Origin: an uncultured SAR86 cluster bacterium
GTDB lineage: Bacteria > Pseudomonadota > Gammaproteobacteria > Magnimaribacterales > D2472
Direction of reading: 5' to 3'
Assembly: GCA_943789005.1 (NCBI GenBank)
Contig: CALSSL010000002.1
Span: 141,716-205,715 of the forward strand
DNA length: 64,000 nucleotides
Below are positions 18,639 through 57,967 of the stretch, in pieces. Each line of letters starts with the position of its first letter. Position 1 is the stretch's first letter. Made by a program: the position numbers and the translations under genes. The notes under the pieces were generated by a model. That model did not search any database. It was not told the DNA's origin and saw only the letters and a program-made list of their open reading frames with translations.

Positions 18639-18717
18639 TGGTAGACCCGAATGGACTCGAACCATCGACCTCCGCAATGTCAATGCGGCGCTCTAACCAA
18701 AACTGAGCTACGGGTCT
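18639..18717 (-). tRNA. tRNA-Val (anticodon GAC)
   Basis: I folded it by eye. Acceptor AGACCCG/CGGGTCT, anticodon stem CCGCA/TGCGG with loop TTGACAT, T-loop TTCGAGT, encoded CCA. Confidence 0.9.
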
Positions 18718-33503: not shown

Positions 33504-33588
33504 TGGTAGGGATGGAGGGAGTCGAACCCCCACGCCTTGCGGCACTTGGTTCTAAGCCAAGCGTGTCTACCAGTTCCACCACATCCCC
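33504..33588 (-). tRNA. tRNA-Leu (anticodon UAG)
   Basis: Acceptor GGGGATG/CATCCCT, anticodon stem CTTGG/CCAAG with loop CTTAGAA, long variable arm (TGCCGCAAGGCGT), T-loop TTCGACT, encoded CCA. Confidence 0.9.
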
Positions 33589-44398: not shown

Positions 44399-45286
44399 TT
44401 AACCTCTGGGGTGATGTTTTTTAAGGATTTCGCCTAATCGTTGTTTTGCAATGTGAGTATATATTTGGGTTGTAGATAAGTCACTATGTCCGAGTAAAAT
44501 TTGAACAGATCTTAAGTCAGCGCCTCGATTTAAAAGATGCGTAGCAAAGGCATGTCTAAGTGTGTGTGGTGAAATAGATATTTTAAGATTTGCTCTTTTG
44601 ATATAGATTTTTATTCTTTGCCAAAAAGCGCCTCTTGATATTTTAGTTCCTCTATTACTAAGAAAAATTTCTTTTGATTTTAAATCTTTTCTATCTTTGA
44701 GATATAGGTTAATTGACTCAGCAGCCTTCTCACCAAAAGGAACCAGCCTCTCCTTAGACCCTTTGCCAAAAACTTTTAACACCGACCTGTTAACATCTAA
44801 GTCAGTTAATTTTAAATTTGTAAGCTCAGAAATTCTTATTCCAGTTGCATATAAAACCTCAATCATTGCTTTATCTCTTCTTTCAATTTGAATATTTAAA
44901 TCAGGACTATTTAAAAGTCTTTCTACTTCTTCTTCAGACATAGACACAGGAAGATATTTTTCTTGTTTAGGCATAACAATATCAGCAATAGGCGATTTCA
45001 TAATTATTTTCTTTTTTTGCAGAAAAATATAAAAAGATTTAATAGCTGAAATTTTTCTATTTACCGATGAACTTTTTAAACCATCACCAAATAATTTAGA
45101 AACGTAATTATTGGCATCAGAAGCATTGATGTTTAATGGGTTGAATGATTTTTTATCTAACCACAATAAAAATGATTTTATATCATTTTTATATGAACTA
45201 ACCGTATTATTTGAAAGACCTTTTTCGATATATAAAGAATCTAAAAAGGAATCAATCAAATGATCCTTTTTATTTTCTATAGTCAT
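44399..45286 (-). CDS. xerD: Site-specific tyrosine recombinase XerD
   Basis: 295 aa with the catalytic R...HTLRHAFATHLL...LLGHSDLSTTQIYTH pattern, in the conserved dsbC-xerD position. Confidence 0.92.
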   Translation of the reverse strand: MTIENKKDHLIDSFLDSLYIEKGLSNNTVSSYKNDIKSFLLWLDKKSFNPLNINASDANNYVSKLFGDGLKSSSVNRKISAIKSFYIFLQKKKIIMKSPIADIVMPKQEKYLPVSMSEEEVERLLNSPDLNIQIERRDKAMIEVLYATGIRISELTNLKLTDLDVNRSVLKVFGKGSKERLVPFGEKAAESINLYLKDRKDLKSKEIFLSNRGTKISRGAFWQRIKIYIKRANLKISISPHTLRHAFATHLLNRGADLRSVQILLGHSDLSTTQIYTHIAKQRLGEILKKHHPRG

Positions 45287-45290
45287 TTGA

Positions 45291-45966
45291 TTAATCTAAT
45301 CTTTCTTTGATTCTGGCGGATTTGCCTGATCTATCTCTTAGATAGAAAAGTTTAGCTTGTCTTACGTCACCTTTTCTCTTAACTTTAATAGAGTCTATTA
45401 ATGGGCTGTGTGTCTGGAAAGTTCTTTCCACACCAATTCCACTTGAAATTTTTCTAACTATAAAAGAAGAGTTAAGGCCGCCCTTTTTAACTCCCATTAC
45501 AACACCTTCAAAGGCCTGAAGTCTTGTTCTGTCACCTTCTTTAACTTTAACAGATACAACAATTGTATCTCCAGGTCTAAATGGTGGTATATCAGTTTTT
45601 AATTGCTTAGTTTCAAAATCATTAACAATCTGAGCAGGCGTTCTTTCTTTAAGCGATATAGATGGGGTGTTATCTGCTTCTTCAGCAACTACTTCTTCTT
45701 CAGCAGGAGCTTCTTCAGCAACTACTTCTTCTTCAGCAGGCTTCTTCAGCAACTACTTCTTCAGCAGGAGCTTCTTCAGCAACTACTTCTTCAGCAGGAG
45801 CTTCTTCAGCAACTACTTCTTCAGCAGGAGCTTCTTCAGCAACTACTTCTTCAGCAACTACTTCTTCAGCAACTACTTCTTCAGCAGGAGCTTCTTCAGC
45901 AACTACTTCCTCAGCAGAATCTTGCAATTCTTCGTTATTTTTATTTTCTTTGTCAGATTCGTTCAT
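45291..45966 (-). CDS. rplS: 50S ribosomal protein L19 with an N-terminal acidic-repeat extension (frame break near 45736-45748 inside the repeats)
   Basis: The conserved L19 core ([29 protein letters not shown]...) has no ATG/GTG/TTG next to it. As read, the ORF starts at a TTG inside the repeats (45752). The only ATG is at 45966 ([25 protein letters not shown]...). Confidence 0.85.
45676..45913 (-). repeat. Tandem array of about 15 units of 15/18 nt (GCAGGAGCTTCTTCA / GCAACTACTTCTT(CTT)CA on the plus strand), encoding APAEE / VVAE(E)E on the minus strand
   Basis: I tokenised it directly. All units are multiples of 3 except a 13-nt variant at 45736-45748. Confidence 0.95.
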
Positions 45967-45985
45967 TATATTTGCCTAAAAAGTG

Positions 45986-46714
45986 CTATAGGATATCCTT
46001 AGATTCCCATTCTTCCAAGAGTTTTTTTTGTTTTTTTGATAATTTTACCTTATTTATTAAATCTGGTCTTCTTAAGTGCGTTTGAATAAGCGATTTAGCA
46101 GCCTTCCAGGCCTCAATTTTACCATGATCACCAGATAAAAGAACTTTTGGGACTTCTAATTCTTCAAAGATTTCAGGTCGAGTATATGAAGGACCTTTTA
46201 AAAGACCATTAGAAAAAGAATCATTATCAACAGAATCCTTATTGCCGATAGTTCCGGGAAGATTTCTAGCAATTGAATCAATTAAGCATATTGCCGCATA
46301 TTCGCCACCGCTCATTATAAAATCTCCAATAGAGATCTCTTCATCAACATATTTATCTATAAATCTTTGATCAACACCTTCGTATCTTCCACATATCAGT
46401 GTTATAGATTTCATGGTTGAAAGCTCTTTAACTTTATCTTGAGTTAACTTTTTTCCTTGTGGTGATAAATAAATAACATGACCCTTATCTTGTTTTGGTA
46501 TATCTAAAATAGAGTCTTTTAAAGGTTCAGGCATCATTAGCATGCCTTCTCCACCACCATAAGGTTTAGCATCAATTTGTCCGTGTTTATTAATAGCATG
46601 TTTTCTTATGTCATAACAATTTAGAAAAAAATTATTATTAATTCCTTTTGAGACTACCCCATATTCAAATATTTTAAAGATTTCAGGAAAAATTGTGAGA
46701 ATATTAAATTTCAT
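45986..46714 (-). CDS. trmD: tRNA (guanine37-N1)-methyltransferase
   Basis: 242 aa with the SPOUT/TrmD motifs (ICGRYEGVDQR, SIGDFIMSGGE). Confidence 0.95.
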   Translation of the reverse strand: MKFNILTIFPEIFKIFEYGVVSKGINNNFFLNCYDIRKHAINKHGQIDAKPYGGGEGMLMMPEPLKDSILDIPKQDKGHVIYLSPQGKKLTQDKVKELSTMKSITLICGRYEGVDQRFIDKYVDEEISIGDFIMSGGEYAAICLIDSIARNLPGTIGNKDSVDNDSFSNGLLKGPSYTRPEIFEELEVPKVLLSGDHGKIEAWKAAKSLIQTHLRRPDLINKVKLSKKQKKLLEEWESKDIL

Positions 46715-46716
46715 GA

Positions 46717-47259
46717 TTAAAAACTTTTATCCCAATTTACAAAAATAGTTGACTCTTCTCTGTTGATTGATGAGATAAATTTATCGATTACAAATGGAAT
46801 TAATCTATTTTGATCATCTATGGATTCTTGTGTTGGTATTAATTCAAGGCAATCATTTGCGCCATAATTATTAAGGTTTTCTACAATACCTAAAATATCT
46901 TTAGATTTGACGTCTATTACCTTCATTCCTATCAATTCATACCAATAAGCCTCATTCTCTTCTGCCTCAGGTAAGGAATCCTTATTTATAAATATATTTA
47001 GGTTTGTATACTTCTTTATGGAATCGATATCATCGATACCAAAAATTTTGGCATACATTTTTGAATTAATTTTTTTTATATATTCAATTTTAAAATCTTT
47101 TATTAAATTATCTTGAATATAAAAACTATTGTAGTTAAGAAGATTTTCTTTTGGTGTGCAAAAAGAATTAATAAAAAATTCACCTATGAGGCCTCTTGGC
47201 TTGCCAACAGAGGCTATACAAATATAGTTACTTGATTCTGATTTATTTGCTTTCATCAT
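46717..47259 (-). CDS. rimM: 16S rRNA processing protein RimM
   Basis: The likely start is MMKANKSESSNYICIASVGKPRGLIGEF at 47259. The ORF-track start at 47310 is an out-of-frame repeat reading. PRC-barrel C-terminus. Confidence 0.88.
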   Translation of the reverse strand: MMKANKSESSNYICIASVGKPRGLIGEFFINSFCTPKENLLNYNSFYIQDNLIKDFKIEYIKKINSKMYAKIFGIDDIDSIKKYTNLNIFINKDSLPEAEENEAYWYELIGMKVIDVKSKDILGIVENLNNYGANDCLELIPTQESIDDQNRLIPFVIDKFISSINREESTIFVNWDKSF

Positions 47260-47291
47260 CTGAAGAGTCTTTATCCTTAGACTCTTCTTCA

Positions 47292-47737
47292 GCAGGAGCT
47301 TCTTCAGCAACTACTTCTTCTTCAGCAGGAGCTTCTTCAGCAGGAGCTTCTTCAGCAACTACTTCTTCTTCAGCAACTACTTCTTCTTCAGCAGGAGCTT
47401 CTTCAGCTAGGAGCTTCTTCAGCAACTACTTCTTCTTCAGCAGGAGCTTCTTCAGCAGGAGCTTCTTCAGCAGGAGCTTCTTCAGCAACTACCTTCTTCA
47501 GCAACTACTTCTTCTTCAGCAGGAGCTTCTTCAGCAGGAGCTTCTTCAGCAACTACTTCTTCTTCAGCAGGAGCTTCTTCAGCAGGAGCTTCTTCAGCAG
47601 GAGCTTCTTCAGCAGGAGCTTCTTCAGCAGGAGCTTCTTCAGCAACTATCTTCTTCAGCAACTACTTCTTCTTCAGCAGGAGCTTCTCTTCAGCAGGAGC
47701 TTCTTCAGCAACTACTTCTTCTTCAGCAGGAGCTTCT
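47292..47737 (-). repeat. Tandem array of about 28 units of the same 15/18-nt repeat between the rpsP core and rimM
   Basis: I tokenised it directly. There are four off-length units: 16 nt at 47406-47421, 16 nt at 47485-47500, 16 nt at 47642-47657 and 17 nt at 47676-47692. All other units are 15 or 18 nt. Confidence 0.95.
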
Positions 47738-48114
47738 CTGACTTCTGCCTTTGCAGCAGCTGCTTCAGCTGCTCTTTCCTCAGCTTCTTTGGCTAGTCTT
47801 GCTTCAATAGCTGCTTTTTTAGCATCTGCTTTTGCTTTTTTAGCATCTAATTTAGCTTTAAGTTCTTCTGGAGATAGATTTGCTTCTTTAACAAGAGTTT
47901 GCACTCTATCGCTAACTTGAGCACCTTTTGAAACCCATTCATTTAGTTTGTCTAGGTCAAGCCTTAATCTTTCTTCTTGACCGCTAGCAGAAGGATTAAA
48001 AAATCCTAATCTTTCAATGAATTTACCGTCTCTTGGGCGTCTTTCATCTGCAACAGTTATAAAGTAATAAGGGTTTTTCTTTGCCCCACTTCTTGCTAAT
48101 CTAATAATTACCAT
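47662..48114 (-). CDS. rpsP: 30S ribosomal protein S16 with a Lys/Ala/Glu-rich and acidic-repeat C-terminal extension (coordinates are the as-read ORF; the repeat frame can be followed to 47243)
   Basis: The conserved S16 core ([41 protein letters not shown]...) is followed by [17 protein letters not shown]... and then [11 protein letters not shown] repeats. The as-read stop follows an out-of-frame KLLLKKK. Confidence 0.9.
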
Positions 48115-48218
48115 ATTTATTTATATTTTCTAAATGTTAAAAAAGATGTGTATTTTAGGTTAACCTTGATAATATTGATAGTATTAATATATAAAGTTTT
48201 CAATTATCCATAACTAAT

Positions 48219-48785
48219 ATGAATTTCATTACACAAGTAACTATATCTATAGTGCTTTATTTTATTGTAAGAACATCTATAAAAAGATCTTCATCTTTAT
48301 ATATATCAAGTCTTATTGCCTCGATATCTTACATATTGATGTATCTGTTTTTATATCAATCCATAACATTACTACCTACGATTCATTTTTTAGTTACAGG
48401 TTTAAGCTTAATAATTTTATTTATCTCCTACTATGAGATAGTTTTGCTTGAAAGAAATGTTAGAAAAATTAAATTAGGTCTTTTTGAAAATGTAGAATCT
48501 TATCCGATAGAAAGAGGTTATAGGCTTGTATTTAAAATATTAGGCGTGGGATTATTTTTCTTGTCGCTAGCATTAATTTCTGGTTTTGCTATTCAATCAA
48601 TATTTACTGATAATTTAATTGTAAAAACAATTTTTACTATTATTGCTTGGATTATCTACTTGCTGACAATCATAGGAATAAAATTTTTTAACTACCCAAT
48701 AAAATATGCCACAAGAGGCTTATTCGTTTCTATGTGGGCTGTTCTTATTGCCTATCTTGCTAACTCATATTTGATTTATAATTAG
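48219..48785 (+). CDS. Inner-membrane protein of the cytochrome c assembly (CcsA/YpjD-like) family
   Basis: 188-aa polytopic ORF divergent from rpsP, the same position as ypjD in E. coli. The sequence assignment is weak. Confidence 0.55.
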   Translation: MNFITQVTISIVLYFIVRTSIKRSSSLYISSLIASISYILMYLFLYQSITLLPTIHFLVTGLSLIILFISYYEIVLLERNVRKIKLGLFENVESYPIERGYRLVFKILGVGLFFLSLALISGFAIQSIFTDNLIVKTIFTIIAWIIYLLTIIGIKFFNYPIKYATRGLFVSMWAVLIAYLANSYLIYN

Positions 48786-57876: not shown

Positions 57877-57967
57877 CTGGCGGAGAGTGAGGGATTCGAA
57901 CCCTCGAACCAGTTACCCAGTTACCTCCTTAGCAGGGAGGCGCTTTCGACCACTCAGCCAACTCTCC
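57877..57967 (-). tRNA. tRNA-Ser (anticodon GCU)
   Basis: Acceptor GGAGAGT/ACTCTCC, anticodon stem CCTCC/GGAGG with loop CTGCTAA, long variable arm, T-loop TTCGAAT, encoded CCA. Confidence 0.9.

Follow-up and report, generated by a model that had tools for sequence, protein, structure and literature searches.

We analysed a 64,000-nucleotide (nt) stretch of DNA from an uncultured SAR86 cluster bacterium (GenBank assembly GCA_943789005.1, contig CALSSL010000002.1, positions 141,716 to 205,715; hereafter the window) and found that its rpsP gene, which encodes ribosomal protein bS16 (S16), leads from the conserved core through a linker rich in Lys, Ala and Glu into a tandem array that would be translated as a long acidic tail. 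Judged from the sequences of related loci, this tail is very probably real and translated. Taken as a whole, we consider it likely that SAR86 S16 is a genome-encoded protein of three parts, that ribosomal protein bL19 (L19) carries a twin of its array, that the frame-breaking lesions seen in both arrays of the window are errors, and that the arrays are coding variable-number tandem repeats (VNTRs); the mechanism put forward within this account, a polyanionic brush, is a more tentative proposal (see below).

The corrected rpsP frame leads through a tandem array to the start of rimM

Membership of the bS16 family is clear from the Pfam profile Ribosomal_S16 (PF00886), which matches residues 8–68 with E=1.3e-22 and a score of 80 bits against a cut-off of 27. 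A search of the Protein Data Bank (PDB) with S16 returned 66 bS16 matches, headed by the 137-amino-acid (aa) chain 9t0z_P (E=1.3e-30). In the window, as in eight related contigs introduced below (L001–L008), rpsP stands at the head of an rpsP-rimM-trmD-rplS operon, with the genes assigned one by one by Pfam (Table 1).

An array of about 28 units had been described in an initial annotation as following the S16 core and the linker, and Tandem Repeats Finder and unit parsing located it as claimed (47284–47737, period 15, 28.3 copies). With up to one mismatch allowed, the 64-kilobase (kb) window contains 22 copies of the unit GCTCCTGCTGAAGAA, versus 0 expected from shuffles, and these copies are confined to two places, 47285–47733 and 45696–45891. 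Parsed unit by unit, the regular units read GCTCCTGCTGAAGAA (APAEE) or GTAGTTGCTGAAGAA (VVAEE), some with extra GAA codons, and do not contain a single substitution; exactly four units are off-length. These are the same four variants, adding 5 nt, that had been pointed out initially, in another unit phase, and the extra bases fall inside the ranges first given for them.

As read, the S16 open reading frame (ORF) spans 47662–48114 and encodes 150 aa, and its reported end at 47662 was borne out by the ORF listing. Without the five extra bases, the frame is open for 867 nt (288 aa) and ends in APAEEESKDKDSSDDESK and a stop at 47243, 14 nt inside rimM, whose ATG lies at 47259; the frame arithmetic, the stop and the rimM overlap of about 14 nt were thus correctly predicted. 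The array is open in the S16 frame, and the other two frames give LLKKK followed by a stop, and SC, a stop and RSS. The S16 stop falls within the rimM start region (47243–47259, minus strand; ATGATGAAAGCAAATAA), and this overlap is kept across SAR86, which suggests translational coupling of rimM to rpsP.

A twin array precedes the core of L19

Downstream of the trmD stop (45986) and ahead of the L19 core lies an array of the same type, which places the acidic repeat at the C-terminus of the operon's first protein (S16) and at the N-terminus of its last (L19). Its frame is broken once, by the lack of a CT between 45741 and 45740; with the two bases restored, the frame runs into the L19 core and yields a 225-aa L19 with an extension of net charge −39. 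The ATG of rplS lies at 45966, and from the equivalent start the intact L19 proteins of L001, L003, L006 and L007 are 181–219 aa long. A search of the segment joining the twin array to the L19 core found no ATG, GTG or TTG. L19 can thus be made only if the extension is translated, and the break, if real, would leave L19 cut off from the one start codon it has.

The S16 and L19 arrays of the window use the same synonymous codons and share an exact stretch of 47 nt. Sharing of 12-mers between S16 and L19 arrays amounts to 0.14 within a genome versus 0.07 between species (p=0.004, in a test without phylogenetic control), which suggests sequence exchange between the two arrays in some lineages.

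Related loci point to consensus errors in the arrays

Exact look-up of the window's TrmD found many metagenome contigs with a 100% identical TrmD, of which eight (L001–L008) were read. In four of the eight, S16 runs in frame to ESKDKDSSDDESK and a stop overlapping rimM (L001, 186 aa; L002, 303 aa; L004, 260 aa; L005, 290 aa), and these four do not contain the +2 unit found at 47684–47700 in the window. The other four have one S16 break each, every one at a different position. L19 is also intact in four contigs and broken in four, in sets that differ from those of S16. The relatives' lesions are defects of 1–2 nt, and several are hybrids of two unit types (for example, GTAGT joined to CCTGCTGAAGAA), as would arise from a consensus of reads with differing unit orders; we infer that merging of such reads into one consensus caused the lesions. 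In segment alignments with these contigs, the window has 0 internal indels in approximately 5.3 kb of aligned non-repeat sequence and 5 in approximately 0.7 kb of arrays; whole-window blastn was uninformative through repeat self-matches.

A TrmD search of reference genomes placed the organism in the SAR86 cluster and added about 50 species-level SAR86 loci. Of the 36 that could be assessed, 29 have an S16 frame that is open as far as the conserved end, and the orthologous rpsP-rimM loci of relatives do not show the ordinary short spacer that, according to the initial annotation, would have implied an assembly artefact. These in-frame relatives support its proposal that S16 has about 288 aa, about 200 of them in an acidic tail up to rimM, as well as its suspicion of the off-length units. 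By assembly type, as judged from contig or record names only, an intact S16 is found in 23 of the 24 single-cell SPAdes assemblies versus 3 of the 9 long-read-looking assemblies (Fisher p=4.8e-4). In addition, exact look-up of the as-read 150-aa S16 gave no match, as an artefact of this assembly would fit.

If the frame breaks were real, S16 would end at 47662 as a 150-aa protein consisting of core, helix and tail stub, and the remaining ~400 nt up to rimM would be a recently pseudogenised, untranslated remnant. The given sequence does read this way, such an S16 still has the whole core and linker, and half of the near-identical contigs are broken as well. We nevertheless regard real breaks as improbable. 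By far the best explanation offered by the sequences is that the window's frame breaks (four in S16, one in L19) are consensus or assembly errors, because the units downstream of them are still identical, the terminal ORF and the conserved end are intact, the lesion positions are unconserved and differ from contig to contig, indels occur in the repeats only, the breaks track assembly type, and a parallel break in rplS would cut L19 from its only start codon.

The off-length units might also be functional and generate S16 isoforms through programmed ribosomal frameshifting or phase variation, given that one gene contains several frame changes and that the alternative frames are briefly open. 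However, neither position nor sequence of the lesions is conserved in near-identical strains, most relatives are in frame, and slippage of 15- or 18-nt units cannot alter the frame. Moreover, inspection of the four sites revealed no recurring slippery motif, and two of the three frames reach stops within one or two units. We therefore give functional frame changes next to no credence.

Several points weigh against consensus errors and the wider account. The assembly technologies compared above are known from names alone; S16 is intact in three of the long-read-looking assemblies and broken in one of the single-cell assemblies (L046). The window has 5 lesions versus at most 2 in any relative. 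The verdict on the frame breaks is drawn from assemblies, and real frameshifts in the source strain keep a small probability. The S16 end motif may owe some of its conservation to the overlapping rimM start. Finally, the concerted-evolution test lacks a phylogenetic control, and the two arrays of several lineages share nothing.

Outside the repeats, L005 has a single-base indel inside rimM (alignment segment B, column 498), and its rimM is called shorter (176 aa); the assemblies of near-identical contigs therefore have indel errors outside repeats too.

Array length varies between strains and the arrays derail assembly

In the TrmD-identical contigs, rimM lies between 544 and 895 nt from the rpsP start. 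The population is thus heterogeneous in copy number, and the window's 28 units need not be exact: the initial count holds for the array as it reads in the window, whereas the true count is uncertain, since near-identical strains vary in copy number. With units of 15 or 18 nt, and lengths that vary among close strains while four of these are in frame (186–303 aa), the arrays behave as coding VNTRs that appear to change by whole units with the frame kept.

Numerous single-cell contigs and contigs of metagenome-assembled genomes (MAGs) stop ~500–1100 nt upstream or ~300–1100 nt downstream of trmD, that is, at the array positions (Table 1); one of them, L009, is a 1487-nt contig comprising trmD and ~650 nt upstream. 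The arrays therefore fragment short-read assemblies. Dozens of database ORFs of 263–323 aa have both S16 and L19 Pfam domains, and reciprocal ORFs begin with the L19 N-terminus, continue through the repeat and finish with the S16 end motif (P0258, P0288, P0295, P0308 and P0311). Both kinds of ORF are products of graph collapse across two near-identical direct repeats rather than real fusions.

These misassemblies bear on whether the entire tail could be an assembly artefact, an over-expanded or misjoined repeat. Such repeats do misassemble, as the S16-L19 fusions, the reciprocal chimeras and the contigs ending at the arrays demonstrate, and the number of units is uncertain. Yet the in-frame tail is present in independent MEGAHIT, single-cell SPAdes and long-read assemblies and in about 50 species with species-specific units, and S16 proteins of 175–194 aa annotated by NCBI also bear it. 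An artefactual tail is thus very unlikely.

The tail is acidic, predicted to be disordered and conserved in character

The 166-residue tail of the corrected S16 contains 68 Glu, 47 Ala, 21 Val and 18 Pro residues and has a net charge of −68. From E127 to S276 (150 residues), there is no Lys, Arg, His, Phe, Trp or Tyr. The last Lys or Arg before the repeat is R126 (preceded by K122) and the next is K277; therefore, trypsin would never yield repeat peptides, and the search for such peptides suggested in the initial annotation would fail on tryptic data. In an AlphaFold2 model of the close intact homologue P0013, the predicted local distance difference test (pLDDT) is ~90 for the core, ~70–85 for a helix spanning residues 82–139 and below 50 for the repeat. 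Given this predicted disorder, its charge and the lack of aromatic and basic residues over E127–S276, the tail would qualify as an entropic bristle by sequence criteria.

The peptide repeats differ among SAR86 species (APAEE, EEAPAEE, AAPAEE and AEAEPEAEVEPK), as do the DNA units. About 50 SAR86 species retain an in-frame, acidic tail of E/A/P(V) character that closes with the end motif E(S/E)xKDSSDDE(S/K)K directly before the stop. As protein character is conserved while the DNA units differ, selection would act on the protein rather than on the DNA. A tail-only query retrieved almost exclusively ribosomal proteins (S16, L19, L17, L31 and L10). In a PDB sequence search, tail-only and linker-plus-tail queries gave no match or core-only matches.

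A tail of the (A/V)(P/V)AEE type is present, with different codons, on bL31 of a genome with a GC content of 0.38 (L091, 6001–6450; P0158), so the tail type recurs independently. The tail type is also seen on bL17, on uL10, and on S16 of Bacteroidota and Alphaproteobacteria.

Alternatively, the repeat could be selected as DNA or RNA, for example as a substrate for recombination around rimM-trmD or as an mRNA spacer that stays unstructured and allows translational coupling, the peptide being incidental. The arrays are indeed direct repeats around rimM-trmD that share identical 47-nt stretches, and the S16 stop overlaps the rimM start clade-wide. We consider such a role decidedly improbable, as just one frame is kept open and the acidic E/A/P/V character, free of basic residues, is conserved while units and codons differ; moreover, the same peptide type occurs with other codons on the above bL31, and also on S16, L17 and L10 of other phyla.

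Comparison with known ribosomal protein extensions

Ala/Glu-rich low-complexity regions (LCRs) of ribosomal proteins have been catalogued before (Ntountoumi et al., 2019; PMC6821194). According to the passages of that work on ribosomal proteins, S16 ranks fifth among LCR-rich bacterial annotations, Ala and Glu together exceed 70% in 157 of 187 S16 LCRs and in 24 of 32 L19 LCRs, L10, L17 and L31 also carry LCRs, and the LCRs are mainly C-terminal and on the ribosome surface; the authors call for functional study. SAR86 is not named in these passages. The SAR86 S16 tail is probably an extreme case of this already catalogued class. The class includes terminal LCRs of S16 and L19, and the SAR86 tail-only query recovers precisely the families S16, L19, L10, L17 and L31; the S16 tail is terminal and of low complexity, with Glu and Ala accounting for 115 of 166 residues (69%, just under the line of >70% in these passages), Val for 13% and Pro for 11%. 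It differs from the class as described there in being about twice the size of the core and in consisting of an array of identical units with strain-variable copies; in addition, the SAR86 L19 tail is N-terminal and the S16 and L19 arrays share units. The initial annotation had missed the twin L19 array, the copy-number variation among strains and the Ala/Glu-rich S16 and L19 tails catalogued in the passages of this source.

C-terminal extensions of bS16 are also present in ribosome structures, with 65 aa in Cutibacterium acnes, 74 aa (30 of them modelled) in Mycobacterium smegmatis, and ~100 aa in Porphyromonas gingivalis and other Bacteroidota. Published bS16 extensions lie on the solvent side or periphery of the 30S body and reach uS4, and their distal parts are invisible in the maps. 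By analogy with their location at the 30S periphery, the SAR86 tails would also lie on the ribosome surface. As in Actinobacteria and Bacteroidota, the SAR86 extension follows the conserved core, and its linker helix may match the part that reaches uS4. The extensions of those groups have been described as braces on uS4 and 16S rRNA, whereas the SAR86 tail is a polyanion, for which electrostatic RNA binding is not expected. The best solved relative of the core, bS16 of Coxiella burnetii (9t0z chain P, 137 aa), has a short extension with an E/A/P-rich end; its ~55 extra residues, however, are non-repetitive and not strongly acidic overall.

In 36 solved ribosomes, flexible fragments of bacterial ribosomal proteins that are unresolved in the structures are enriched in Glu (+93%) and Ala and depleted of aromatic residues (bioRxiv 10.64898/2026.06.18.733196). 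The SAR86 tails resemble these fragments in being disordered ends of ribosomal proteins, but bS16 and bL19 are unmentioned in the text of that study and the Glu enrichment is given no mechanism. An analogy, and only that, can be drawn to the P-stalk of eukaryotes and archaea (P1/P2, aL12), in which an Ala/Pro/Glu-rich flexible hinge also precedes a short, conserved, acidic end containing Ser; the tail-only query retrieved one protein, P0189, that its source names L12E/RPP1/RPP2. The P-stalk tail end bears a hydrophobic factor-binding motif (GFGLFD). The SAR86 end (KDSSDDESK) lacks such a motif, the S16 end ESKDKDSSDDESK having no hydrophobic residues at all, and the proteins and their ribosome positions are different.

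Literature searches found no relevant paper on SAR86 ribosomal protein extensions, matches for a bL19 N-terminal extension were mostly unrelated to ribosomes, and a paper on the F. johnsoniae ribosome does not discuss the S16 tail. For SAR86, the searchable literature yielded nothing on a tail of about twice the core size, on an identical-unit array with strain-level copy variation, on an N-terminal L19 twin of the same units or on systematic misassemblies.

A polyanionic brush as a candidate mechanism

In the account that we favour, SAR86 bS16 would consist of a core of ~80 aa, a Lys/Ala/Glu helix segment of ~45–60 aa, a polyanionic tail of ~165 aa and the KDSSDDESK end, and bL19 at the far end of the operon would bear an N-terminal extension of ~100 aa built from the identical unit type. 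The tails would be disordered, strongly negative chains tethered to the solvent-exposed sides of both ribosomal subunits, 30S and 50S. They might act by bulk charge and excluded volume as an entropic and electrostatic brush with no specific fold, limiting non-specific sticking of ribosomes to ribosomes, nucleic acids and membranes, and they could hold counter-ions. From polymer scaling, a chain of the length and charge of the S16 tail is estimated to extend ~10–15 nm, comparable to the ribosome. A brush is favoured over a sequence-specific role because tail length varies freely and the composition recurs, with different codons, on other surface ribosomal proteins; as a mechanism it is possible but less likely than not.

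Deeper SAR86 lineages add a module to L19

In deeper SAR86 lineages outside the window (L033, L038, L044 [SAR86A, JH611156], L051 and others), the L19 extension is 165–257 aa long and includes a module that the window's L19 does not have. The module was read per locus from ~740–1500 nt downstream of the trmD start (proteins P0241–P0357). It precedes the acidic repeat, comprises MSDNKDNKKKGFFSRLFGG and, further on, ALNKMKKADIVxxAKxNGLxLDIxLTKAKLLEAW, and is conserved in the deeper lineages. Its KKGFFSRLFGG matches the membrane-targeting sequence of Escherichia coli MinD, KGFLKRLFGG, at 8 of 10 positions, although the L19 motif is at the N-terminus and not at the C-terminus. FFSRLF (residues 12–17) is predicted to form a short helix (pLDDT ~60); by a simple and not decisive calculation, its hydrophobic moment is 0.25, versus 0.45 for MinD. 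Residues 40–82 are confidently predicted to form a three-helix domain (pLDDT >90), for which the top Foldseek matches are SAP, Rho-N and FAN1 domains (root-mean-square deviation 1.3–2.3 Å, with weak E values of at least 0.76). One of 117 homologues has a precomputed PF02037 (SAP) match, and a Pfam search with the N-terminal module of two deep-clade L19 sequences gave no match at E≤1.

By analogy with MinD and SAP domains, SAR86 ribosomes might bear polyanionic tethers of variable length, of which the deep-lineage bL19 tether, with its MinD-like helix and SAP-like domain, would leash the 50S subunit to membrane or nucleic acid, the window's version being anchorless; we consider this idea doubtful. 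If it were true, the acidic repeat of the deep lineages would be a spacer between the anchor and the 50S subunit, and a ribosomal protein would serve as a built-in localisation device.

Other features of the window and of related loci

A promoter and terminator scan of 45200–48400 found no more sites than in shuffles, and no terminator between rpsP and rimM. At gathering thresholds, Rfam identified three tRNAs in the whole window and nothing in the operon. Extensin_1 and HC2 Pfam matches to the tails were rejected, being far under the cut-offs and due to composition only. On the plus strand, long ORFs lie opposite both arrays (47196–47741 and 45603–46085, the latter encoding LLQQELLQQ-type repeats) as mechanical by-products of the repeats. 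Each APAEE unit also reads AGGAGC on this strand, which is Shine-Dalgarno-like; no sign of relevance was seen.

Table 1. Coordinates of the rpsP-rplS operon and its arrays in the window, and related features elsewhere
Feature	Location	Strand	Basis or remark
rpsP core, bS16 residues 1–81	47872..48114	-	ATG at 48114; Pfam Ribosomal_S16
Lys/Ala/Glu-rich linker, predicted single long alpha-helix	47740..47871	-	AlphaFold2 of P0013; conserved across SAR86
Tandem array, ~28 units of 15 nt plus extra GAA codons; putative acidic bS16 tail	47285..47737	-	Repeat finding, unit parsing
Off-length unit GCTCCTGCTGAAGAGAA, 17 nt, +2	47684..47700	-	First frame break, leading to the stop at 47662
Off-length unit GATAGTTGCTGAAGAA, 16 nt, +1	47635..47650	-	Unit parsing
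Off-length unit GGTAGTTGCTGAAGAA, 16 nt, +1	47478..47493	-	Unit parsing
Off-length unit GCTCCTAGCTGAAGAA, 16 nt, +1	47399..47414	-	Unit parsing
Conserved non-repeat tail end ESKDKDSSDDESK plus TAA stop	47243..47284	-	Last 17 nt (including the stop) overlap rimM
rimM	46717..47259	-	ORF; Pfam RimM/PRC_RimM on orthologues in L001–L008
trmD	45986..46714	-	ORF; Pfam tRNA_m1G_MT
rplS start: ATG plus 17-letter opening, ahead of the array	45918..45966	-	Same start used in L001, L003, L006, L007
Twin array of S16-type 15-nt units; putative acidic N-terminal extension (~100 aa) of bL19	45677..45917	-	
Junction plus bL19 core (core 45291–45640)	45291..45676	-	Pfam Ribosomal_L19, E=2.4e-46
Three tRNA genes	18642–18717, 33507–33588, 57881–57967	-	Rfam
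Further bL17/uL10/S16 tail examples	P0150, P0203, P0212, P0222, P0121, P0201, P0173, P0134		
S16-repeat-L19 fusion ORF P0082	L089 4001–4879		MEGAHIT contig; normal flanking neighbours, rimM-trmD missing
Further S16-L19 fusion ORFs	P0015, P0017, P0047 and ~20 others		
Reciprocal chimera P0258	L090 1–2183		Order rimM(3')-trmD-chimera-rimM(5'); rimM pieces from two genotypes
Array-ended contigs (single-cell and MAG)	L009, L015, L017, L018, L020, L021, L023, L025–L027, L029, L032, L034, L035, L039, L040, L045–L048, L053, L055, L057		

Significance

Both rpsP and rplS are universal single-copy marker genes. Through their twin arrays in SAR86, contigs from short reads are broken, false S16-L19 fusions and chimeric rimM-trmD contigs arise, and false frameshifts appear in long-read-looking assemblies. 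Estimates of completeness, the calling of pseudogenes and phylogenies based on marker genes can each be skewed by such array errors.

SAR86 bacteria are among the most abundant marine bacteria and have a streamlined genome. Despite this streamlining, the two tails would cost about 265 extra residues per SAR86 ribosome. They are present in every lineage examined, with their length free to differ between strains. With the tails kept and strain lengths varying, SAR86 therefore constitutes a natural length series for the question, raised in 2019, of what Ala/Glu-rich ribosomal tails do.

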